A DNA stretch of 64,000 bases. It comes from a virus. The stretch covers positions 64,001-128,000 of the IMG/VR virus record IMGVR_UViG_3300045988_132810, one strand, 5' to 3'. The first letter of the stretch is position 1, and every line of letters begins with the position of its first letter. The translations under genes and the position numbers were made by a program. Positions 3,001 through 32,846 of this stretch are shown piece after piece. The notes beneath the pieces are model-generated. The model searched no databases, was not told where the DNA came from, and saw only the letters and a list, made by a program, of their open reading frames with translations.

Positions 3001-5850
3001 AAGGTCGTCAACGCTCTTTATACTACTATCAAGAGTAAATGTGCCGTCCGCATTTTCAATAAAAGCACTAGCTTCTTTCGCGTCGGCAATAAATGCTTCT
3101 ATGTTCTTTAAGCCTATTGAAAAATTTCCATCATCATCAATAGTGAAATAGTCTGCAAACTTTGAGTTTTCAAAATAATCATCAATGGCGTCAAGACGTT
3201 CTTCAAAAGTTTTACAGTTTGCAATGACGCTCGGAGGAACTAATGCCTCACATGCCGCCTTAAATGCTTCCGTCCCAACTTTGCCACTCAACAATCCGTC
3301 GCTAATGGTCTCAAGCATTTCAACCATTGAGTCGCCATACGCCATTTCTGAATCTCTGTTTTTGGCATCTTCAAATTCATCATATGCATTGGTAACATCT
3401 GATAATTTCAACTCTAAAATTGAATATTCTTTAACTGCATTCTTGAGTGCTTGTATCTGACTACGCAGCGCGCTAATATTATCATAAGTTGCTTTTGTAA
3501 CATATCCATACGCCTTGTAATCCGCATACATTGCCTTAACAGCCTGTTGTAGTTGTTTTACAACTTTTGTATACTGCGACTGACTTTGTGCTTTCGCCGC
3601 ACTTACTGTTGCCTTTTGTTCTTTTTTCTTCTGTGCAATTAATGCTCTTAATAGACGTGTATTCTTAACGACCTTGCCATTCGTAGTATCAATTGCGTCA
3701 CCGAAGCTCTCTTCGCCAACAGTTACATCTCCAAGATACTCTTGGAGTGCAGTATAATAATCGTCAGAAATCGCTTGCCCGTCAAATGTTATGTCATTAA
3801 CTGTCTGTAACACTGACGCATACGAATCATAAGCAGAAGTAAGGCTTGCTATGTCGCTAACAGCCACAGAAGTGGCTTCACTAGTCTGTTGCATAGCACC
3901 GCTAATGTTCAAGAAATATCTTGCAACATCTTCTGCACTAATTCCAAGAGAGTCTAATTGTACTTTAAACTGTGGATTTTCAGCAATTAAGCTCTCAACC
4001 TCTCCAGTGACTCCTTCAATAGCAGATTCGTAATCTCCGAATTTATCAACGTCAACATTGATCTCTCCAGATTCAATTTTCGCGTTAAATGCTTCTTGGA
4101 ATGCTTGTCCTGCCTCAGAACCACGCTCGCCGAATAAGCGGTCAAGAGCAGACTCTTTTGCTCCAGCAGAACCAAACATGATTTCTGCTCGATCATTGTA
4201 ATTTTGCATCGAACTAAGAAGACCATTTACTGCCTTTTGTGCCTCTGTTAAATTGTCACCATCAAACCATTCCAAGTCGCTGACGCCATATTCTTCTTCT
4301 TTGCCTTTCATAAACTCGTCCCAATTGGACTGTGCGTCGGCATAATCTTCTTGCGCAGACTCTAAATTCTTTTCTAGCTTTTGGAACTTTTTGCTATTGG
4401 TGTCCATACCAGAGTCTAAGACATCCTGTACTTCTGCTTCCGCTTTGTCTAGTTTATCTTTGGCGTTCTTTACTTTACCTAATTCGTCTTCGAAATTGTT
4501 TGTTAAATCAGCCTCGCCAGCCGCTCGCGGCTTAAAATCTTGATCTGTATCTAATGCGCCCTTTACAGCCTCTGCTTGCTTGTTTTTCGCACGCTCTTCT
4601 CTTGCTTCTTCTAACCGAATCTGACGTTCAAGCTCGGCATTTTGCTCTTTTAATTTGTCAAGCTCTTCTTGCTCTGTAAGAGTTAATGGACCTTTAGATT
4701 CGAGCTCTTCTATACGATTCTTTGTAGTTTCTAATTCGGAGTTGAGAGACTCTATATTCGAACGAATATTGTCTAGTTCCTCACTAGTGTCTTTAAGTTC
4801 TTCTACGTAATCTTTATGAGACTTAGTTAATGCACAAATAGTCACAGTCAACGCAGCAATTGCAGCAACGGCCAAAATCGCCCAGCCAACAGGATTTGTT
4901 ACGAGCCAAGCTGCCGCAGTCGCCACTGCCTCCCAGATGCTTGCGGCCAATGCTTTAAAAGACACTATCAGTCCAGTATTCGCAGTAGTTAGCCCCATGG
5001 CAGCAATAATTGCTTCAGCGTCCGCACCAACAATTCCTTGCGTTGCAAGTGCTTCTCTAATCTTCGCTGCAGTATTTAAGTTCGTTGCAACAGTTTCTTC
5101 TCCTGCTTTACCAGTTAGGATTGTCCTTATAGCGGCTTCTTTTGTTGCATCACCAATTTTAGTCGAATTTAAAATCGCTTCTTTTACTTTTGCTCCATTT
5201 AGCGCTTCTATCGCTGCAGTTTCTCCTGCGTATGTGGCTATGTTGCTCTTGATTGCATTAGTTAACTTTGACCATAGGTCTGGCAAGAAAAACTTGCCGA
5301 GTTGGATACCAGCAATTGTAATAAGTGCGCTTTGCAACACGCCAACTTTGTCTATGATATTTACTAATCCAGTGCCAACATCCACAAGGAATTTAACAGC
5401 ATCAGACCTTATAAAATTCATCCACATTGTTTGGACTGCATTTGTAAACTGATCAATCTTTCCTTGAATACTATCCAAGTATTTTTCATTTTCGGCCATT
5501 GCACTGCCAGCAGAATCTGCAGATGTTTGCATCGCATCTTCTACTAAGTCAAAATTCTTAATAACGGCGGATAAAACATTTGCTTGTCTTTTCCCGCCTA
5601 GCAATTCTAGTGCGGCTGCTCGATTTACGTCCGTCATGTCGTCCCATACTTGAGACATTTCACGTAAAATTTCTGTAGTGTTCTTGAATGTATTCTCATC
5701 GAGCATAATGTCAACTTTACCGCCTGTTAAAGCTAACAATTTTTTCTGCAGTTCTGAGACGCTATTGGCCATGCCATCAACGTCCTCACCTGCATCTTCT
5801 AATTCTACCTTGGCTCCGCGAATACGAAGCGATAAGGTTTTCATTGCTGT
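1..5850 (-). CDS. Tail tape measure protein, exon 2 (3' partial; frame still open at base 1, at least 1950 codons)
   Basis: Hand translation of the minus frame from 5850 to base 1 shows no stop: TAMKTLSLRIRGAKVELEDAGEDVDGMANSVSELQKKLLALTGGKVDIMLDENTF...AAALELLGGKRQANVLSAVIKNF... This resumes the TP901-type TMP core (PhageMin_Tail PF10145 / TIGR01760 pattern vG.alKtlslRlRg) exactly where the upstream ORF is cut. It is missing from the ORF track only because it has no stop inside the window. Further in there is a hydrophobic segment (AAWLVTNPVGWAILAVAAIAALTVTIC), coiled coils, nine W/F repeats, and a NAIVGELGRELVV...LPKGAIIYNHKQTEELL motif typical of Firmicute-phage TMPs. Confidence 0.85.
970..1980 (-). 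repeat. Nine in-frame tandem repeats (37-38 aa) FFTEThPxKWxEFWxxVGE inside TMP exon 2
   Basis: The FFT codons start at 1977, 1866, 1755, 1644, 1533, 1422, 1308, 1194 and 1080, giving periods of 111 nt five times and 114 nt three times. The antisense ORFs in the track show the same periodicity (SQNSxHFxGxVSVKN). Trp/Phe-periodic repeats are a known TMP feature. Confidence 0.9.
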
Positions 5851-6163
5851 CGATCTATTACTTTCCCACGAAAACCAAATGGTACTGACCGATTATGTAA
5901 TCGGCGGCAAGGTCTTTCGGCCTTGCTCTACGATTTTATTTTTAGATTATTGTCGTAGTCTAGACTGGATCTTCACCCTCATTCCCGTCATTATACGGAG
6001 TAGGGGAACAGCGGAACCTGTTATGTTACCATAAAAGGTCTTACAGTCGTTACGGATACTTTGCACACTGCAAAGTCTTTCCTCGGTCTTGACCATCTCT
6101 GGCTTTTAACCGATATAGCTGTTTTCTTTCAATATATTACTATATTGTTAGGCTATTATGTTA
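5851..6163 (-). ncRNA. ORF-less group I intron (313 nt) interrupting the tape measure gene
   Basis: The upstream ORF ends ...LITAANSVVQNPESVG followed by TAA (6163..6161), in the middle of the conserved TMP core. The core resumes in frame at 5850 (TAMKTLSLRIRG). P1 helix: exon UAGGU (6168..6164) pairs with intron GCCUA (6153..6149), placing a U.G wobble at the 5' splice site. The last intron nucleotide is G (5851). Structured elements include CUUUGCA-GUG-UGCAAAG, GCAAGG..GAAA..CCUUGC, and CUACGA...UCGUAG. It shares conserved blocks with the second intron at 28644..28916. Confidence 0.8.
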
Positions 6164-9100
6164 ACCTACAGATTCTGGATTTTGCACAACGCTATTGGCG
6201 GCTGTAATTAACCCAATAGACTCATCAAGTGTATTGCCAGCCTCTGCCATAGCACTAGCAGAACGCAATAGCGCTTGTCCAATACCTGATGAACTGATTG
6301 CAAAGTGGTTTCCCACCTCGTTGAATTTATCTACGATTCCCATAGCATGAGACGCTTCAATACCAAATCCGTGCATTGTAGAAATGATACTGTCAGAAGC
6401 CTCACCAATATCGGCTAGGTCATCACCAACGTTATAATAAACGGAAGCGGCCTTTGCCAAGTCAGATGCTTGTTCAATGTTATATCCTAACCTTGCGAAA
6501 TCTGCTGTAGCATTAGTAAAATCTTTAACGGTAGAGCCGATCTGCCCAGCAGTTTTAGACGCATCTTGTAAGAATCTCTTATAACTTTCATCAGTTTCGT
6601 CAGTAACTTTTTTCAGTTCAGTTAACGCTGCGTCAATTTCTCTTACATATGTAATACCTTGCTTAATTTGAGCAACAGTTTTATACACCATATTTGCGCC
6701 AGTAAAGTATGTAAGAATTTCACCAGACTTTTTCTTAACATTGCTAAAGAAAGAGCCAAGCGTACTACTTGCTTTGCCCATATTCTTAGCGGAAGCATTA
6801 ATAGCATTTCCCGCTTGATTAAACGATGCAGTTAGTTTTTCTACTTCGCCATTGCCATTCTTTATTGTAAAAGTAACCTTGGAATAGTTGTCAGCGAACT
6901 GAATAGATTTTTTATCTAACCCATCAAAAGAATTAGCAAATGCTTCTAATTCACTTCTTCTGCTTGCTTCGTCGCCAATATCAAAGCCATCAGAGACTGC
7001 ACGAGTGATATTACCAACTTTGTTTTTCATCTCTTCGGACTTCTTAATGATATTTTCAATTGCTTTGCCATATTTATTAAATGACTCAACTGCACTATCA
7101 AACTCTGCGGCCTTTTGCTTACCCAAATCCGAAGTGATGTCTATGTTTGCAAGCTCTTTTTGAAGTGTAATTATTCTTTGATATGCTTGCTCGTATTGCT
7201 GTAATTGAGTAGTAACCCCGGAGGCATTGGCATAGCCTTTGCTATTAACGCTATTAATTAACCCAGTATGCTTTGTTTCGACTTGTCCGACAACATCTGC
7301 CCCATACAAAGTATTGTTTTGCTTTGCTGAGTCCTTCTTTACCTTTGCGTACTGTTCAAAATCGCTCATGAGCTGCTTTGTCGCAGCACTCAACCTTTGC
7401 ATGTCATCTTCTGACACTTTACCAAAGGCTTCTTCGGACTTTGTTAGATCTTGTATCTCCTTTGATAGAGTTTCATATCTACTCTTTAACTGGCCAAGAT
7501 CACTATCTTTATCTACGAAGACTTCCGTATCAATTTTCCTAAAAGCAGAAGATAGCTTTTGATTTGCATCTATTAATGTTTTATAATTGTCTAGTTCTTT
7601 ATAGCTGTCGTTAGAACTTTTAGAACTACTAGAATGAGAAGTTATCCCTTTTCTTGTGCCCTTGCTGGAATCAGCTTCATTTCCAAGTGATTCAGCAGTT
7701 TTATCCGCGCTATCTTTTACATTTTGGTTTGCATTAGCAAAATCATTTTTCGCTTGAGTGGCTGACGCGAAAGCCTCGCTCGCTTCTCTCGCCTTTTCTA
7801 TTTCTTTTTCTATAGCAACCGCAGAAGCTTCCGCACTTTCCTTAACTCGTGCATTAGCTTCAACAAACTGATTTTTTTGTTCCGTCGCCGCCGCAAATGA
7901 TTCCTGTACACCACTAACGCTGGCTACTTCGGGAGCAGTCGTTGCAGGATCTCCTGTATTTTGACCATTAGCAATCTCACCAGTTGCTGTCTTCGAAACC
8001 TTTGACGCATCGCTCTGATTTTGTTTTTCTTTTTCTTTTGTAATTTGCTGTTGCGTTTCCAATTGTTGCTTTGCTTCTTCATTTTGTTGTTTCTCTACTG
8101 CCAACTCTTGCTCTGCCGCATCGGTGCCTTTTTGCTTTGCTTCTGTCGCACTACCTAATTGTACTTTTGCTTCAGCAAGCTTGGTTTTTAATTCATCAAT
8201 TACAGAAGACAAATTTTCAATTTTTGCTCTATATTCATCTACGACATCATTTGAAGTCATATTATCGACTTCGCTCATCGGGACAGAATTATCTAGAGCA
8301 TTTTGGATGTCGTAATAACTATTCTTCCACGAATCTAAAGCACCTTCCATACGAAGGATTTCTTCTTCCAATTCTTGTACTTGTTTTTGTGCCGCGTCAA
8401 GCTCGGAAGCGTCAACAGGATTTGTCGGAATAGCATTTAATTTTTCTTTAAGAGCGGCAATTTCTTGCATAAGCTCTTTTTCTTTTTCAAGCTGCGCGGT
8501 TTGATTGTCCATTTGATTAGACTGAGTTGAAGGCTGCCCAGACTGAATCTGATTAAGCTTTTCTTGCGCGGTAGTCTCCTCGTTGATAGCCTCAGTAGTT
8601 TTTTGATGTGCTTCTGCTGCTTGCGCTTCGATTTCCTTAATTCTAGCTACGCTTTGATTCCAAGCATTAGTAGAGTCAATTTCTCCACTCTCGAACGAGC
8701 TAAAAATATCTTTAAACTTGTCCCAATCGGCGGTGTGCGATGGATTTAATGTTGCCAATAAACTTTTTAATTTTTCAATTGGTGCAACAGAATTTTCTCC
8801 ATTCTTTTGTATTTCGGCTAAATAAGATGACAACTCTGGTAGCTGTTCCATTGTATATGTCTTAACAGTCGAAGCTAACCCATTGTCTGTAAACGCCTTA
8901 TCTAGGGCTTGATTGACTTTTTCATTAAACGCAGCAATCAACTGTTCATATGAAATGCCCGCTTGCGCCGCTTTTTCTTCTGCTCCTTTTATTAATCCAA
9001 CTTCTCCGTCATTATATTCCATCAGAGGAAATTCTTTTGTAGCTGCTTTTAAATTTTGAGAGTAAGATTCTCCAATTTTGATGGCCATTTCTTTAGAAAT

Positions 9101-10831
9101 GCCAGTAAAATCAATTGTTTTAACAACGCCATCTGCAATGATACCATTAATTTTTGTGCCTTGGTCATAAAACAACTTGGTAAATGAATTAATATCCGAC
9201 GGCGTAAATGCACTCATTCCATCTGGGTGATTGTGCAAAGACATTACGATATTTTCTTTTAGATTGTTGACAAGTTGTGATACTATTGCGTCTGTATCTA
9301 CCTGAAAATCCTTCCCAGAAAAAGAACTTACCACTTTGTCCGCGCCAAAAAGCGTCATAGACTCTTTTGCGTCGCCGCTACCTTTTGAATAACCAACCTC
9401 TTGCCCCGACGCAACATTTAATAATTCTTGTAGCTCGCCAGTTACACCGCTAACTTCTTTTGCGCTTTTTTGTGCAGCCGTAGGAATTTCAACATTAAGT
9501 AGCTCACAGATTTTAGAAAGTGCTTCGGCTCCGGTAATGTCTCCAAAGTCTAAATCTGAAAAGATCTGTTCAATTGCAGTCCCTGCCTCTTTAGACGCCT
9601 GAGAAACTTCTTTAATTTCATCGACAAGTGCCATTAACTTCTCTTCGTTTTGGGCCCCTTCGTCTGTCCCTGACAATAACGAGACATATTCTTTAACTCT
9701 TTTATTTAACTCATCATATAAAGAAATCTTTTTTTCTTCCGAAGTTCCATTTTCTTTTTCTACAAAATCATCTGGATTTTCAATGTTTTTAAGGTTGTCT
9801 ATTTCTAAATTAATATCTGCAATTTTTTGCTTATACTCGCTCTTTATCTTTTCAAGCGTAGCATTCTGCTTTGCTCTAAACTCTTCTAAAAACTCTTCGG
9901 CCCTATCATATTCTCTAGAATTTGCAGCATATGCCGTAGCGTCATCGCTACCATGCTCGAACACATAATCCATTGTGCTCTTTAACTGGCTTGCTGCCTT
10001 TATTTTTCTTACAAAAGCTTCTTCTTTCCCTGACTTGCCAGTTCTCTCTAATTCCGCAAGTTCTTGCTCTGCTTTTTTAAAATCTTCAACAAGGCCAGCT
10101 AGAACAGTAGTATCATTTTTCTTTGTTGTTTTTACTCTTTTGTCTTTGCCATTAAAAATGTCTAATGCTTCTTGATATCTTGCCTTTTGTTTTTCCAGTT
10201 CATCAATTTGTCGTTGAACTTCTTCGGAAATTTTATTACCTGCATCTTTGATATCGCTAGACACTTCATCCCCAGCAGACTTGATATTATCTCCAACTTT
10301 AGATAAATCAATCTCGCCAAATGCGATATTTAATTTACCATTTAACTCGCTGGCATATTGGATTAATGCATTAAACTGTTCTTCAACACTTTTAGTGTTA
10401 AAAAGGTCTAAGTCAATTTGTTTATCAATGCCAACGTTCTTGAGGATTGTATTTAATTGCTCTGCGTAGCTCAGTAATTCTTTCGTCGCACCTTTGTCTT
10501 TTAAATTAACACCACTAAGCCCAGTAAAAACGTTTTTAGACAACTCTGAAATCTGAGACATCTGTTCAACCATTTTATCAAAAGACTTCATATATCCGCT
10601 ATTAAGCTTATCTCCAAGACCTGCTTTGACGGAATCCAAATCTTTCCTAAGTGCCTTAACAGCATCGTCCATAGCGACAAACTGCTTAATAAAATTATTA
10701 AGATTTCCACGCTTGCCAATGTTTGCTAAAACTCCATCCACCTGTTCAGCTTGAGTCTTACATGCAACAAGGCTACTCATAAGATCATCAATACTATATT
10801 TAATTTTCGAAGTATAACTCGCTTCTGCCAA
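6164..10831 (-). CDS. Tail tape measure protein, exon 1 (about 1556 aa)
   Basis: This is track ORF 6161..10840. The C-terminal 330 aa match the TMP core pattern (TAGQIGSTVKDFTNATADFARLGYNIEQASDLAKAASVYYNVGDDL...FNEVGNHFAISSSGIGQALLRSASAMAEAGNTLDESIGLITAANSVVQNPESVG). The N-terminal part is coiled-coil and low complexity. The likely start is TTG 10831, 8 nt after AGGAGG (10845..10840); the listed GTG at 10840 overlaps the Shine-Dalgarno sequence. The terminal TAA belongs to the intron. Confidence 0.85.
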
Positions 10832-10848
10832 AAGAATCACCTCCTACT

Positions 10849-25640: not shown

Positions 25641-28600
25641 TTAAATAGAAATACATGGACAAATACCATGAGCTCTGTTAGATGGCATATAGCTACTCAT
25701 ATCACCCTGAATGCCAACCGCTCTAAAGTAAGAATTGTACGCCACTTCTGGTGAACGTAGATAATATATGCTCGCAGTATCCCCAATAGACTTAACTCTA
25801 TCTGCAGATGAACCAAAGAATTCAATTGCTTTACCTTCGGAGCTATATGGCGCTTCGGATGTGTTAAACATTTCCACATACGACGGTAGATATACATAGT
25901 CTTTTGAATAAACAATATCAGATGCCATATTACCAGCGGTTGCAGGAATCTGCACTTGCTTAATAATTGATTTCCACTCTGTTGGGAAAGCCGCATAAAC
26001 TCTACTATTACAGAACGCTCTCATTTTAGAGTCATTCCATCCGCCAAGGTTGGTGTTCGTAGAATTCATATTGTGAGTGAGAGATAGCAAATTCGCCGGA
26101 ATGAACGAAGCTCCAGTAATTTTACTAGAATCTTGCGCACATCTATATCTCTTATCACCATAATATTCATAGCGCCAAGTTTCATGCGGCCATGCAGCAA
26201 GCTGTCTAGCCGCAGTGTCTCCAATATCATCAAGCCATACTTTGGCCCAGTGAATTGTGCCCTTACCTAGCGTTACGCTATCAATTGTTCCATTTGACAG
26301 GAACTTAAATCCACCAAGCATAATTGTCGCCTCAGTATTAGTTGTACGATTGCGCACAAGCTCTGTATAAGCCATTTCGTCAGCATAAACACCAGTTGTA
26401 GAAGCTCCAGAGTTAAACGAGTAGATATAAAGTTTACTTTCTCCCTTGCGGTGACGAAGCACAACGATATCTCTTTGGCCTCCTTTGCCTACTACTTTAC
26501 TAGTATTTCCCCACTGGATTTCTGGATTTGTACCATTATACTTTAGTCTAAATCCTTCAGAGCCATCATATTCAAAGCAAGACAATAGCGTAGCATCAGC
26601 GATATTGTCGCCAAACTCAAAATCTATAGCCATTGTAAATGAACCAGAATCTGCGCCAAATAGCTTAACGCCAGAATCTACTACTTTTGAGGAAGTGCCA
26701 TCAAAAGTAATTTCATCTCCAAGCATATGTTCTTCAACATTTGAGAACGAGAAATCCTGCCCAACACGGACGTCAAAATAGTCTTTCTGCTCGAAATAAT
26801 CATTTGCTCTCCCAGCAGTTGTTACGGCATAAATCTGTACTGGAGTCATATCTTTCAAGTCAGTTCCAGATGCTGGGAGCCCATTTTGTGTCTCCCACTT
26901 AGCATAGACGTCAGTATCTCCAGTGATATAGCCTGTGCTCTTATCCCAGCCAGTGAATAGATTATAAATATAAGAATCCTCATTATCGCTCATAGTTGGG
27001 TTGTCGCCTTCATATTCCGCAACAGCACCATATTCTACGCCAGTTTTAGTCGCAAGAACAACGCCTGCTTGCTGGAACCAACGCACAGTATATGTTCTTA
27101 CTGACTCGCTATATTTTGCTGTCACAGTTACAGGAGCAGTAACATTCACATCAATGCCATCCCAGCCAGAGAAGGTATAATTGTACTGTGCGGTACTTGG
27201 AATTGTCGGAGTGTCAATTTCACCACTTGCGACAGGATCAGTAATCTTGCCGCCTTGGTCAACATACTGAACATAATCATTGCCACTCTTGTCTTTAATA
27301 GCAGTACCATCGGAATTCATAAACGTCACTTTATACTGAGTAATAATACCATTATAAGTGACAGCTAAATCAGGCCATGCTGCCGCATAAGCATCGAGTT
27401 CTCTCTGCCTTGCTTGGCCAGCAATATGAACCTTACCAGCAAGTAAATTGTTATTCATCTTCAAAATAGCATTTAACAATTCAGTGCTTGTCACAGTCCA
27501 GTCAATGCCAGTTAAACGAAGTGTCTGCAACGTGTCAATTGCATCCTCAACAATTGGATAAGCATCAATTACAGAGTTCTCAATAGTTAACGATTCAAGA
27601 TTGTCATATGTCGCCTGTAAATCGGTTAAGTAATTTAGATTCTTAAAGCTTAAGCTATTGATTGTATTTGGTAAGTGAGCAAGTGCAATCTTACCATTTG
27701 CCGCGAATAGCACACCAGTTACAGATGTCCCCTCTGCATAAAGCTTCTCTAAGTTGCCACAGCTTGACAGATTGATCGATCCAGTCAATTTAGGGCAATT
27801 ACGAATGTCAAGTTCTTCAAGTAACGCATTGTTGCCAAGGTTTAGATTGGTTAAGAATGCATTAGAATAACCAGAAGTTTTATTGCCAATTACAAGCGTC
27901 TTAAGCTTTGAAGCCTTACTAAAATCATTATCGTGAATATAGCAAGCAGAAAGATCATTCAATGCCTGAATGCGAGAAGCACAATAAATTAGTACTGCCG
28001 TATCATCCATCTTGGTAAATGGACATTGAATTTCATAAGATTGTCCTGCCTTTGCACGAATCTGCTGTGCACTTGGAGAGTTGCCAAATAGCACAGACAG
28101 ATACATATCTGAATAAGGCACAATGTTTAGAGTGTAATTAGGTGCAACAACTACACCAGAAGGAGTATTGCATCTAAACATAATTTGATCTGCCTTGACA
28201 GTTGTAGACAGATATTTCGTTCCCATATAAGCCGCTTGGTCACGTTCAAATTGTCTACGCTGATATTTCTTACGACCATTCATCATAGACTCTAAGAAAC
28301 GAGGCGTTGGCTCTGGAGTTGCACCAGCATTGAGGCCACCACCTTGATATGTCCTGTAATACTTACGCTCAATATCAAGTCTCCAAAGCTCTTCTGGGAA
28401 TTGTGCTTGCCAATTGTCAAATTCATTAATTAGAGATGTTGCACTAAAGCAACCTTCTCCTTCAAGAGTTTGATACATTACTGCAAGCTCATCGTGGAAT
28501 AAATCACGTATCCTACACCAAAATACATTGTCTGCTGCATTAAATATATAACCCGAAGATTTATCGCCTTCGGTGCGATAGTCAGTGTCTTCCTTGCCAT

Positions 28601-28643
28601 ATGTCATGGTAAGCTCGCCACTGTTGTTAATTCCAAGGGCTGT
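25641..28643 (-). CDS. Giant tail adhesin, exon 2 (1000 aa): end of CotH-like domain, LRRs, B-repeats, LamG-like, DUF6273-like C-terminus
   Basis: The frame of track ORF 25641..28607 stays open 12 codons further upstream (TALGINNSGELT) up to the intron 3' end. LRR segment: LKTLVIGNKT...LTNLNLGNNALLEELDIRNCPKLTGSINLSSCGNLEKLYAEGTSV. B-repeats: YNYTFSGWDG and YNLFTGWDKSTGYITGDTDVYAKWE. C-terminus: GGWNDSKMRAFCNSRVY...YVYLPSYVEMF...IYYLRSP. Confidence 0.8.
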   Translation of the reverse strand, partial: TALGINNSGELTMTYGKEDTDYRTEGDKSSGYIFNAADNVFWCRIRDLFHDELAVMYQTLEGEGCFSATSLINEFDNWQAQFPEELWRLDIERKYYRTYQGGGLNAGATPEPTPRFLESMMNGRKKYQRRQFERDQAAYMGTKYLSTTVKADQIMFRCNTPSGVVVAPNYTLNIVPYSDMYLSVLFGNSPSAQQIRAKAGQSYEIQCPFTKMDDTAVLIYCASRIQALNDLSACYIHDNDFSKASKLKTLVIGNKTSGYSNAFLTNLNLGNNALLEELDIRNCPKLTGSINLSSCGNLEKLYAEGTSVTGVLFAANGKIALAHLPNTINSLSFKNLNYLTDLQATYDNLESLTIENSVIDAYPIVEDAIDTLQTLRLTGIDWTVTSTELLNAILKMNNNLLAGKVHIAGQARQRELDAYAAAWPDLAVTYNGIITQYKVTFMNSDGTAIKDKSGNDYVQYVDQGGKITDPVASGEIDTPTIPSTAQYNYTFSGWDGIDVNVTAPVTVTAKYSESVRTYTVRWFQQAGVVLATKTGVEYGAVAEYEGDNPTMSDNEDSYIYNLFTGWDKSTGYITGDTDVYAKWETQNGLPASGTDLKDMTPVQIYAVTTAGRANDYFEQKDYFDVRVGQDFSFSNVEEHMLGDEITFDGTSSKVVDSGVKLFGADSGSFTMAIDFEFGDNIADATLLSCFEYDGSEGFRLKYNGTNPEIQWGNTSKVVGKGGQRDIVVLRHRKGESKLYIYSFNSGASTTGVYADEMAYTELVRNRTTNTEATIMLGGFKFLSNGTIDSVTLGKGTIHWAKVWLDDIGDTAARQLAAWPHETWRYEYYGDKRYRCAQDSSKITGASFIPANLLSLTHNMNSTNTNLGGWNDSKMRAFCNSRVYAAFPTEWKSIIKQVQIPATAGNMASDIVYSKDYVYLPSYVEMFNTSEAPYSSEGKAIEFFGSSADRVKSIGDTASIYYLRSPEVAYNSYFRAVGIQGDMSSYMPSNRAHGICPCISI

Positions 28644-28916
28644 CGATCTGTTACTATATAGGCTTGGCCCTATATTATGACTTACATTTCTGTAAGCGGA
28701 GCAGGTTCTTCTTTAAGCGGTCTGATTACCGTTGACCCACTCTCTGCAATTTCATTATTAGATTATAGTTGCAGTCCAGACTGTTGCATACTTCATAACT
28801 CGCGTCACAAAGCCCTTTGTACTCAGTCGTTGCAGGCGGAAAATTTCCTTCCTGAGCGTTGCCAATCTCTTGGTTTTCGCCATTAATCAACAAAGGTTTT
28901 ACAACGACAAAATTTT
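28644..28916 (-). ncRNA. ORF-less group I intron (273 nt) interrupting the giant adhesin gene
   Basis: Exon 1 reads ...[10 protein letters not shown]. Read-through gives KILSL followed by a stop, and exon 2 resumes in frame as TALGINNSGELTMTYGKEDTDY. P1 helix: exon AACGAU (28922..28917) pairs with intron GUCGUU (28908..28903), placing a U.G wobble at the splice site, and the helix can extend to 8 bp. The terminal G is at 28644. The 3' end AGUAACAGAUCG matches intron 1 (AGUAAUAGAUCG). Shared core blocks are AACGACUG, CAGUCURGACU and AUAAUCUAA. Confidence 0.8.
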
Positions 28917-31900
28917 ATCGTTATCATAGTCCCACAGCTCAAAACGATATTTACCATCTACACATTTAGCATAATGATAAAAAGAATTTTTCGCTCTGTT
29001 ATCGATCATAGTATATCTCTCAGTGAACACATACCAATAAAGAGCAGAATCTTTGATTACCCAATTATCAAGCTGTGTGACAAACTCTTCATCAGTAGAA
29101 GTAATTACCCATTCATAGAAATCACGCCACACCTGCTTGTTCAATGCTCTTTGTGCCTCTTGCTCTTCTGTAGTGGCAGTTGTCATTCCATCCTTCGTTT
29201 CGCCACCCATTTCATAGCGGAACTCGAATGAACCATCCCAGTCATTGTAAAGAGCGTCATAAGCAGTGTTACCAGCCTTCCACTGTTCTTTCGTGATAGG
29301 ATAAGTCATATTACCATCGCTGTCGGTTACACCAGTTTGGAAAGTACTGTTAGGTAGAGTATTGTCACTTACTTCAATGACAAACTCTTTTAGGTCAGAG
29401 ACATCATTGACTCTGGTAGCATCGGTTTTTTTTGAATCACCAATATTTCCCAGCCCGTAGAAGTGCCAATCATTATCCTTAAATTCCATATGTTTAGAAA
29501 CATCAGGATCGGTTTCTTTAATGAACACTACGCAATTTTGGAACTCCATGCTATTCTTACACTTTGGATCATTTTCCATAGCAACAGTTTTATATGGCAG
29601 ATAGTCATTATAACGCTTCTGGAGCAATGCGTTATTTGCATTTTCAGAGCTTGCGATATTCAGCTTGATGTTCCACCAGTTGTTTGGCACAGAGTTCCTA
29701 GTCAAACTAACCTTACCAGAACCATCAGAATACTTTGTTCCATCTCCAAGAATAAGCTCCGTTACATAACTCGTATCCAAAGGAATCTTGCTGATAATCT
29801 GCTTCTTGCCATCAGCACAAGCAATAATATCAATATTTCTACCAGCGTAACCATATTCGTTAGAAGTCGTTCCCTGTCCAGAAAGATAAGTGTTCATGAA
29901 CTTCCAGTTATCTAGCACCGGGTCTCCACCCTTATAGATGCATTCGACATTTACGCCTTTTACAAAATCTTTTTTGTCCTTAGTAAAACGAGGACACTCA
30001 ATCTTAATAACTCTTAACTGTGGGCATGCATTTGCCACAGATTCAGGAGTTAGCGCATTATTTTCGTTATAAATCTGATTACGATTATATCTTGCAATCA
30101 TCTCATCAGAGTCTCTTGCATCAGCAACGAAGTTTGACAAAATGTTAGAGTCAGTCAGTGAAGCACTATAAGCCTTCATCCTATAGATGTGAACATCACA
30201 ATCTGTAGAACCAATAGTAATAGGCACTGGCTCGTACTGATATAGTCTATGCGTTGAATCGTAAATCATAGGTCTTAGACCAACACCATCTTCATAGCTC
30301 ATAATGACTGCAGTCGCATCTGAATTGTCCTTATCAATTGTATTAATATTGAACTCAAATTCAATAATATCTTCCTCGCTATAAGGAATATATAGACTCT
30401 TAATACTAGACTTCAAATACGCCTCATGAACATTCATTTGCAGGCCCACAACAGTAGAATCTGCTTGGCAAGTCAGGAATGTTGCATTTGCATTACTAAC
30501 ATTCGTAGTTTTAAAAACGCATTTAAATTCAGAACCATAAACACTTGCGTCTCTCTCAAAAAGCTTATAATTGATAGTGGCAGTTGTTCCAGCCTTAACA
30601 CAGAAATACTGGTTGCCATCTTCGTCAATCTGATAGCCGCCATTGCTCCAGTCGAAGTTATTTGAAACTGTCATTGCAACATCAGTGTTTGCGTCTTTCC
30701 ACAGTCTGTCTTCATCGCTATTGGAAAGGCCAGTAGGATTAAAGTCAAATGCCAAATTTGCAGTAATTGGCTCGATAGTAATACCGAGCTCCTCAATATT
30801 CATAATAATTTTAACAGTTGTGTCTCTGCAAGTAATGAGCAAAGTATGTTCACCAACATCAGAAGATTTATATGCCCAGACATCAGAATTGCCACTCATG
30901 ACCTGAGTCGCAACAACTTTGCCGTCAACACTTCTTGTAACAGTCGGAGTTGCCGTCTTCGGGTCATAAACATAGAACTGAATATTCGTTGAATTATACT
31001 GTTTGGCAGTTACTTTACCATAATGGTCATATCTATAAACGCATCCGATAACAGGAGCATCACCATTCTCGTCATACCACATAATGTCCTTGAAGATATG
31101 CTCAGTTTCAATGCTTTTACTATTAATCGTTGCTGTAATATAGCACTCAAATAAATGCGCACCATGGGCCTGAGCTGGAATTGTATAAGACTGCAATGTA
31201 CCAGAGGAACCAGTCGAAACAGTTCCAATTTCAACACCATCAAGCACAAAATGCACAGTTTTATTTACTGCGCCATATGGAGTGTATGTGAAATTGACAA
31301 CACTATTTGCCTGATATGTAATCTTATCATTAAACGAAGATTCGAGTCTTACGTCTACCTTTTGCACAGTCCAAGACTTAACAGCAGTAGTGCCAGCAGC
31401 ATCCACAACAGTCAACGTAAACTTCTGAGTGCCAATATTGGTGTAATCAGACATATCAAACGTATTCACGCCCTGCACTAATGCACCAGTTGATAGAACA
31501 GTGCTACCAGACTTCCAAGTGTAAGTGCCATCCACAGCTTCTCCATCACTATCCACTGAAGAATAATTAAAGCTAATCTCTACCTTATCTGTCGTAGTAA
31601 CAATAACTGGAGATTCAGTAATACGCTCGACTTTAAGAGTAGTAGTAACAGTAGAACCACCGCCACCACCAGTAATTACGAATTGGCTCTTTACTTCTTC
31701 TTTTTCATCTTTAACTTCGTAAAGTGTAAAAACATTCTCTTTCTCTTCGCCAGTTGCTAGAGTAGCATTTCCATATGTAGCATAGTATGTATAACCTTCT
31801 GTGTCGATACCGTCAACGGTTTGTCTTAGCGTATCAATATTTCTACTTAGAGAAGCAATGTTTGTCGTGTTTGCTTCAATGTTTTGTGCGTTTGTGTCTA

Positions 31901-32846
31901 CAGATGCCTTAAGTGTAGAAACCTTGCTGTCAATTTGAGACTTTGTATAATTGTCTCCCCCGATAATGCAGAACTCATCATTAATATAGCGATAATGCAC
32001 GTACAGCCCATCGCCATTTTTCACATAATAATCAGTAAACTCATTTCCCGTTTCAGGTAATGACTCCACTACATTCGCCATAGTTCCTGCAATCATTTTC
32101 CAAGAGTTATCAATCCATTTATAATAAAAACATCCTGCATCTGAATGTAGGATATAATCAGTTTCTACATCACCAGTTTGTGGCAGCTCAGTAACTACAA
32201 GAGTGGAGCTTCCTTTAAATTCATCCCACTTTTGATTGCCATCGTTATCCGTAATCCACCAATACTTTTCATAACCGCTACCAGACGCCTTTGGAACAAG
32301 ATAGAATGTGTAATCTTCGCCTGAATCTGGAAGCTCGTCAACGACTTCAATGCTATAAGAATGAAAATCAGCTAGTGCCGCATCAATATCAGATTTTGCT
32401 GATTTAGTATATAATTTGCCACCTGCATCAACACCAACCTCTTGCGTCATATTGTCTGCTTTTGGAATAGCTTTTACGCCGCCAAGCACGTTTTCTGAGG
32501 CAGTAGGCAGAGTGTAATTTTCTAAATTTTTAAGTTTATCCTTTTCTGCGTCTGTATAATCATTGGTAGACAATCCCTTGCCAGACACCTTGTCTACTTT
32601 ATTGTTATTAATTTGATTTTGTCTGCTTTGAACAACAAATGTGTCATTCTGAGTTAGAGACGGCAAACTGACAGTATAAGTGCCATTTGTAAGTGAAGAA
32701 ACTTTTATTCCTTGTCCAAGCGTCTTTTCTGTCACAAATACGTCGTCGCCATTTAGAGTCGGAAGCTTAACGACGTGCGAACCATCTGTTAAGTTCTCTA
32801 AGTTATATGTTTTGCCTCTAACAGTAACCTTGTTTATGAAAGCCAT
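28917..32846 (-). CDS. Giant tail adhesin, exon 1 (1310 aa): TYNLENLTDG N-terminal module, fibre and Ig-like regions, CotH-like domain start
   Basis: Track ORF 28899..32846 minus the last 5 read-through codons. N-terminus: MAFINKVTVRGKTYNLENLTDGSHVVKLP. The C-terminal part, YWYVFTERYTMIDNRAKNSFYHYAKCVDGKYRFELWDYDND, resembles the CotH (PF08757) core (..NyYlY....kw.fipWDlD..fG). Confidence 0.8.

Follow-up and report, generated by a model that had tools for sequence, protein, structure and literature searches.

Two open reading frames follow one another on the minus strand of a viral metagenome sequence, and the locus raises the question of whether these are neighbouring genes or the two parts of a single gene with something lodged between them. 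The window, the whole stretch of DNA that we analysed, comprises 64,000 nt and corresponds to positions 64,001-128,000 of the IMG/VR record IMGVR_UViG_3300045988_132810. The minus-strand frame 28899..32846 takes its last 18 nt from the insert (KILSL-TAA, with the stop at 28899..28901), and the apparent product of this unspliced frame, ending in KILSL, has 1315 aa. After the insert the same frame resumes as TALGINNSGELTMTYGKEDTDY and closes at 25641, the reopened stretch upstream of this stop reading ...STALGINNSGELTMTYGKEDTDY. When 28644..28916 is deleted (273 nt, a multiple of three), a single 2310-aa reading frame with zero internal stops is left, in agreement with the in-frame joining that the first-pass annotation of this DNA had stated from a reading of the letters. 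Based on the sequence comparisons set out below, we consider it very likely, with a probability of roughly 0.92, that 28644..28916 on the minus strand is an ORF-less group I intron within one gene, which would encode a 2310-aa CotH-domain tail protein of a phage of ~150 kb.

The predicted spliced junction is WDYDND/TALGINN (here and below a slash within a junction marks the splice point), the peptide across it being WDYDNDTALGINN and the ligated exon DNA GATAACGAT/ACAGCCCTT. The 5' exon would occupy 28917..32846 (minus strand; 1310 codons, ending ...WDYDND) and the 3' exon 25641..28643 (minus strand; 1000 codons plus the stop, starting TALGINN, with DUF6273 at the C-terminus of the product). 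An A follows both junctions, leaving the boundaries ambiguous by one base, and this ambiguity is resolved by the rule that the exon ends in U and the intron in G; the U at 28917 and the G at 28644, both named in the earlier annotation, are read directly from the sequence.

The continuity of the host gene is observed at the protein level as well. With a 368-aa segment of the spliced product as query, the Pfam CotH model (PF08757) matches at 27.1 bits against a cut-off of 23.8, in one stretch covering residues 121-333, with the splice junction at 207/208. Neither frame alone gives a CotH match in Pfam at E<=0.01 or E<=1. The alignment therefore bridges the junction, an outcome that the first-pass annotation had put forward as a check on its reading. 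The 2494-position profile phrog_14959 is likewise matched collinearly, by exon 1 at positions 464-1154 and by exon 2 at 1543-1993. The labels that had been given to the downstream half fared less evenly: at E<=1 Pfam returns DUF6273, which stands, and nothing else, leaving the LRR, B-repeat and LamG assignments without a match in the regions that resemble them. Taken together, these comparisons support the view that the insert splits a single gene for a CotH-containing tail protein rather than separating two genes.

The insert itself has the anatomy of a group I intron. Intron positions p convert to window coordinates as 28917-p, such that position 1 is 28916 and position 273 is 28644, and all elements lie on the minus strand; the whole 273-nt element matches the profile of its family (described below) at E 3.6e-59. 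P1 spans 28901..28924 and is seen both in the sequence and in the minimum free energy (MFE) fold, pairing exon positions -8 to -1 (AUAACGAU, 28917..28924) with intron positions 9-16 (the guide GUCGUUGU, 28901..28908) in 8 bp closed by the loop AAAAUUUU. The wobble U28917.G28908 sits at the 5' splice site, and the helix agrees with the pairing of AACGAU and GUCGUU, extending to 8 bp, that had been proposed for it. P1 is followed by J1/3 (AAAA, positions 17-20) with no P2, and then by P3 (28814..28896; positions 21-27 with 97-103), in which CCUUUGU (28890..28896) pairs with ACAAAGG (28814..28820). P4 and P5 occupy 28855..28881. P4 (GGCG with CGCU) joins positions 36-39 to 59-62, J4/5 is AAAA (positions 40-43), P5 (CCAA with UUGG, around a GAGA loop) joins 44-47 to 52-55, and J5/4 is CAA. 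The P6/P6a hairpin lies at 28833..28854 (positions 63-84), its loop, which is the site of the ORF in relatives, being reduced to GGAAAUUUUCC; J6/7 is CAA (positions 85-87).

P7 (28777..28829; positions 88-93 with 134-140) pairs CGACUG (28824..28829) with CAGUC-U-G (28777..28783), leaving U139 bulged, and its pair G89-C138 is presumed to bind the guanosine. The P8 hairpin (28791..28812; positions 105-126), with a GCGA loop, lies between the two P7 strands. P4-P6 and the 5' strand of P7 lie inside P3 and the 3' strand of P7 lies outside it, which gives the P3/P7 pseudoknot and the canonical group I order. A 3' domain of P9-P9.3 (28657..28774) comprises P9 (28744..28774; positions 143-173), P9.1 with P9.1a (28699..28742; positions 175-218), P9.2 with its GAAA loop (28681..28696; positions 221-236) and P9.3 (28657..28674; positions 243-260), which only some relatives have. 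The intron finishes ...GAUCG, with the terminal G (omega-G, G273 at 28644) ending the conserved tail GUAACAGAUCG; across the family this 3' end is conserved as AGUAACA, a short spacer and G. Only the AAAA separates P1 from P3 in the window and only one base separates the 3' strand of P3 from P8; with P2 and P7.1/P7.2 thus absent, the intron stands outside the classic phage IA2 layout. Two small frames lie wholly inside the intron, at 28677..28886 (plus strand, 69 aa) and 28726..28893 (minus strand, 55 aa). Both are probably spurious, because they have no homology support and overlap the conserved RNA helices.

This structure was assessed on an alignment (A1) of 36 family members made with MAFFT L-INS-i after removal of the ORF-bearing P6 loops. 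Across the P3-P9.2 model 98.8% of 1858 cells form standard pairs, compared with 75.0% when columns are shuffled and 35-49% when pairing partners are slid by 1-3 columns, and 39 of the 52 pairs show changes on both sides; none of 500 shuffles attained any of the observed measures, and a separate pair count on 50 sequences agrees. Compensatory changes are spread over most helices: all seven pairs of P3 (99.6% of cells paired), three of four in P5, all four in P6 (100% paired), all five tested in P8, four of six in P9, all seven in P9.1, four of five in P9.1a and three of four in P9.2. P4 is 100% paired. In P7 five pairs are invariant and one switches from G-C to A-U, all cells being paired in this alignment and in the 50-member count. 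A single-sequence MFE fold of the window copy, computed with no structural input, has an energy of -79.3 kcal/mol (z-score -3.4) and recovers P1, P4, P5, P6/P6a, P7, P8, P9, P9.1/P9.1a, P9.2 and P9.3; P3 is missing from it because of the pseudoknot.

Furthermore, the guide covaries with the exon that it faces. At least 12 different P1 helices occur over the insertion sites of the family and the U.G is kept in all of them, the exon and guide sets including AACGAU with GUCGUU, AUGGAU with GUCCAU, CUUGGAU with GUCCAAG, UUGGCAU with GUGCCAA, CUCGGCAU with GUGCCGAG, GUGGAU with GUCCAC, GUGGGU with GCCCAC, and UUGGGU with GCUCAA. A 6-bp P10 can be picked out by eye in two relatives, L068 (UGCUGU with ACAGCA) and L097 (AACAUU with AAUGUU), where the loop bases directly 5' of the guide complement the first six bases of the 3' exon exactly. 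The window copy has no P10, its loop AAAAUUUU and the 3' exon ACAGCC being unable to pair. Many group I introns can do without a P10. The first-pass annotation's identification of the 273 nt as a group I intron is thus borne out by the U.G pair of P1, the P3-P9 helices, the P3/P7 pseudoknot, the terminal G and the covariation.

The absence of a P10, the absence of an endonuclease ORF and a single mismatch in P9.1a (A185.C200, where relatives have A-U) could be taken as signs that the window copy is a decayed relic, dead for splicing, in which case the locus would yield the truncated 1315-aa N-terminal protein and maybe a separate C-terminal product from the ATG at 28607, which does open a 988-aa downstream frame (25641..28607). 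However, the CotH domain would be severed by such a split. Moreover, P1 and P3-P9.2 retain all of their core pairs in this copy, which also keeps all 70 columns that are invariant in A1, and it is because of this preservation that we regard a relic as unlikely. A near-identical copy, L057, is a 273-nt element at the same site with 94% identity, and the differences between its P8 and that of the window compensate one another, implying that the fold is under selection. We accordingly consider decay improbable, and retain the reading of an intact group I intron.

Comparison with other alleles shows what the locus looks like when empty. A protein search returned 120 homologues, of which P0001 (94% identity), P0002, P0004, P0006-P0010, P0016 and P0037 read uninterrupted through WDYDND-T(A/S/G)LGINN. 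The closest IMG/VR relatives (L001-L026), with 83-97% amino acid identity on contigs of ~100-165 kb, show a continuous match of 1104 nt where the window has 1104+273 nt, so that exactly the 273 nt are missing, and intron-minus alleles of the insertion site are common. In the six intron-less relatives that were checked an open frame of at least 2206 aa runs over the junction and ends ~1000 codons beyond it, as in the window; the DNA at the junction reads GAT/AC. These uninterrupted homologues and intron-less alleles agree with the earlier claim that a CotH tail gene of about 2310 aa has been split. Elsewhere in the protein databases many entries end in ...DND-(K/R)x(L/M)SL-stop, as results when the guide of this intron is translated, and others end in ...TALGI-KC-stop, marking a second insertion site 15 nt downstream.

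Several further observations were made on these alleles. Where the window reads GATAACGAT/ACAGCC, L001-L003 and L010 (locus ~3610-3630) have GATAATGAC/ACGAGT, with synonymous changes exactly at the insertion site, a pattern as would be expected if the site had escaped a homing endonuclease or the P1 pairing. The intron-less L002, L003 and L026 have an in-frame stop ~250-320 codons upstream of the site, where other relatives are open, and either a further intron or a boundary between genes could account for it. Breaks in the protein alignments at query residues 191/192 were considered as a third intron site and rejected, because L072 and the protein sequences show a variable insertion of ~25 aa there in many homologues.

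That a short, ORF-less element is found in some alleles and not in others would also fit a small piece of mobile DNA of another kind, such as a MITE or an IS fragment, that had disrupted the gene. Yet the boundaries of the insert show neither a target-site duplication nor a terminal inverted repeat, a finding on which a MITE or IS was rejected, and the element carries conserved RNA pairings on one strand, with compensatory changes. Its 5' end, furthermore, pairs with whichever exon hosts it, and the order of the core together with the P3/P7 pseudoknot is specific to group I introns, making a non-intron insertion extremely improbable. Scarcely any weight can be given either to translational joining by ribosome hopping or bypassing, or to independent neighbour genes whose frames align by chance: both ORFs do share one frame across a gap that is a multiple of three, but known bypass distances (50 nt in T4 gene 60) fall far short of 273 nt with several stops in frame, the intron-less alleles show one gene, and the CotH domain spans the gap. 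An intein was rejected on the in-frame stops, and a group II intron on size and structure.

For the group I intron we infer both splicing activity and the use of guanosine as cofactor from the modelled structure, which points to the following course of events. In the pre-mRNA, the guide GUCGUUGU and the exon end AUAACGAU would form P1, with its U.G at the splice site, and the P3-P9 core would fold around it. Free exogenous guanosine, held in P7, would attack after U28917, the 5' splice site, whereupon the terminal G28644 would take over the guanosine site and the freed 3'-OH of the exon would attack after G28644. The ensuing exon ligation (...GAU/ACA...) would restore WDYDND/TALGINN inside the CotH domain. 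A TAA five codons into the intron, overlapping the guide and J1/3 segment, is conserved in the family, and it would stop ribosomes on unspliced RNA before they reach the ribozyme core; by analogy with the T4 introns, this early stop codon may serve as a ribosome block.

The intron belongs to a sizeable family. An IMG/VR scan for the R/S motif pair, with the pattern CAACGACTRA-N(20-50)-ATGYAAYAGTCTGRACT, returned 83 stretches representing 66 distinct elements, and wherever the sequence upstream of an element is available a matching 5' half is present, located 12-60 nt upstream in ORF-less elements or 500-1200 nt upstream where an ORF occupies the loop. Same-site relatives with P6-loop ORFs include L053 and L060 (1102 nt), L061 (1050 nt), L072 and L074, and L070-L074 are similar. 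In L053, L060 and L061 the 5' and 3' parts are as in the window, with the ORF inserted in one hairpin loop. The ORFs of L053 and L060 both encode an I-HmuI NUMOD-like domain (PF22083; L053 scores 29.9 bits, the cut-off being 27) and weakly match the GIY-YIG of I-TevI, the alignment in L053 being between its N-terminus and the GIY-YIG catalytic domain (PDB 1LN0, E 0.024). L061, L072 and L074 carry a different type of ORF, the L061 type having only a sub-threshold match to DUF2726. The window copy has no ORF, hence no homing endonuclease gene in a peripheral loop, and in consequence cannot home by itself; since its relatives carry P6-loop endonuclease genes and it has none, it appears to be a mobility-defective derivative, one that may persist because it splices.

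Within homologous CotH genes the family occupies at least three sites, each guide matching the local exon: site 1 after DND, site 2 after LGI, 15 nt downstream (L054, L059, L065), and site 3 after NNWH, ~170 codons upstream (L124). In one sequence (L068; IMGVR_UViG_3300035501_000578, 3001-4410) two family introns lie 15 nt apart in the same CotH motif, the first ORF-less and the second with a GIY-YIG-like ORF, and the 15-nt micro-exon between them, ACAGCACTTGGCAT plus one base, encodes TALGI. Shorter family members interrupt other genes (L080, L096, L099, L102, L104, L117, L128 and L148). The 3'-exon translations of L080, L096 and L102 match major head protein PHROGs (phrog_9953, phrog_267, phrog_283), and L080 has two introns ~1 kb apart. 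Long insertions with other types of ORF are located in the 3' domain, beyond P9, rather than in P6 in L086, L087, L106, L111, L122 and L127.

A second, diverged member lies within the window itself, at 5851..6163 on the minus strand (313 nt), where the 3' half is matched by the profile at E 1.5e-6. The gene that it interrupts is the tape measure gene: ORF 6161..10840 terminates in ...SVG-stop, and no stop breaks the 1950 codons of the exon-2 frame (TAMKTLSLRIRGAK...) as far as the window start. UAGGU in the exon would pair with the guide GCCUA as P1, and the last letters of the element are ...GUAAUAGAUCG; presumably it is what the first-pass annotation had called intron 1.

As to the host, 12 more matches were found in contigs of gut metagenome-assembled genomes, binned mostly as Clostridia, Lachnospiraceae or Faecalimonas, and the portal and head-region proteins of the window are only distantly related to SPbeta-like, Sundance and Bacillus phage proteins. 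The host is therefore probably a gut Firmicute, and more narrowly probably a Clostridia bacterium.

The usual detection routes failed to pick up this intron. The first-pass annotation had suggested a search with the Rfam model RF00028 (Intron_gpI), and this found no match in the whole window at the gathering score, in the 751-nt slice 28400..29150 at E<=10, or in the loci of 14 relatives at the gathering score; the Rfam runs on the window and relatives gave chance snoRNA-like matches only. Because this search fails, the identification of the intron rests on comparative structure and not on the Rfam model. Nucleotide searches were similarly empty: blastn of a 1-kb region against 50,697 deposited phage genomes found nothing, and blastn of the intron alone at E<=1 against the 50,697 phage records gave no convincing match, a 35-nt match in Clostridium phage HM2 (E=0.9) being treated as chance. 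Bias in the Rfam and GISSD models, which may leave phage variants undetected, has been pointed out in a 2025 survey of Bastillevirinae introns (PMC11878797).

The intron shares several features with known phage introns. Like it, the td intron of T4 (subgroup IA2, carrying I-TevI) lies in a phage protein-coding gene, has the U.G of P1 at the splice site and a terminal G, and meets a stop codon in frame soon after the 5' splice site. The P7 strands AACGACU and AGUCUG are identical in the two (cuAACGACUau and auAGUCUGcu in td, gcAACGACUga and acAGUCUGga in the window), with CUGCA opening P9 directly afterwards in both; the strands match the consensus elements classically termed R and S. The td intron contains its endonuclease ORF, annotated as GIY-YIG, ahead of the P7 strand in the P6 loop, and relatives of the window intron have GIY-YIG-like ORFs in P6. 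Unlike td, however, the window intron lacks P2, lacks P7.1/P7.2 between the 3' strand of P3 and P8, has a large P9.1-P9.3 domain, and interrupts a tail protein gene rather than that of a nucleotide-metabolism enzyme. Sequence-level similarity does not extend beyond P7: the family nhmmer profile gave no significant match at the T4 td locus, so that what ties the family to td is its topology together with the short stretches of identity in P7.

Introns of Firmicutes phages, such as those in Twort orf142 and nrdE and in the DNA polymerase, rNDP reductase and terminase genes of SPO1 and Bastillevirinae, offer a second comparison. They too occur in phages of Gram-positive bacteria, in which genomes and single genes often contain several introns, and carry homing-endonuclease ORFs in peripheral loops, as in the window family. 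Phage group I introns, found via Rfam and GISSD models, lie mostly in genes of DNA and nucleotide metabolism, with the Twort tail tube gene orf142 as a precedent for a structural-gene host (PMC11878797). In contrast, the window family is missed by RF00028, although the intron has the same overall core topology (P3-P8) as that model describes, and it sits in late structural genes, namely those for the CotH tail protein and the tape measure and, in relatives, the major head protein.

The element is thus of a known kind, a group I intron, and its family is a sizeable one that goes undetected by the Rfam model and targets late structural genes; at least 66 distinct copies exist in IMG/VR, and their placement in structural genes stands against the DNA-metabolism bias of the recent survey (PMC11878797). 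Overlooking the intron has a practical cost: gene callers then report the 2310-aa tail protein as two "hypothetical" ORFs with no apparent relation to each other, and the CotH domain is lost. Truncated fragments of this sort, with ...DND-KxLSL or ...LGI-KC at their ends, are already numerous in public protein databases. The A1 alignment could seed a covariance model with which the annotation of tail and capsid genes in gut phages could be corrected.

A bolder proposal, which we regard as doubtful, is that these introns form an uncatalogued structural subgroup specialised on the late structural genes of gut Clostridia phages, in which splicing would act as a guanosine-dependent gate or as a device against competitors. 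The features proposed for such a subgroup are the absence of P2 and of P7.1/P7.2, the elaborate P9.1-P9.3 and the invisibility to RF00028; its targets would be the CotH tail protein, the tape measure and the major head protein, with introns piling up at neighbouring sites of one conserved motif, down to the 15-nt micro-exon of L068. If the gate or anti-competitor role were true, splicing would control the making of the receptor-binding half of the tail protein, and the intron would not be neutral baggage.
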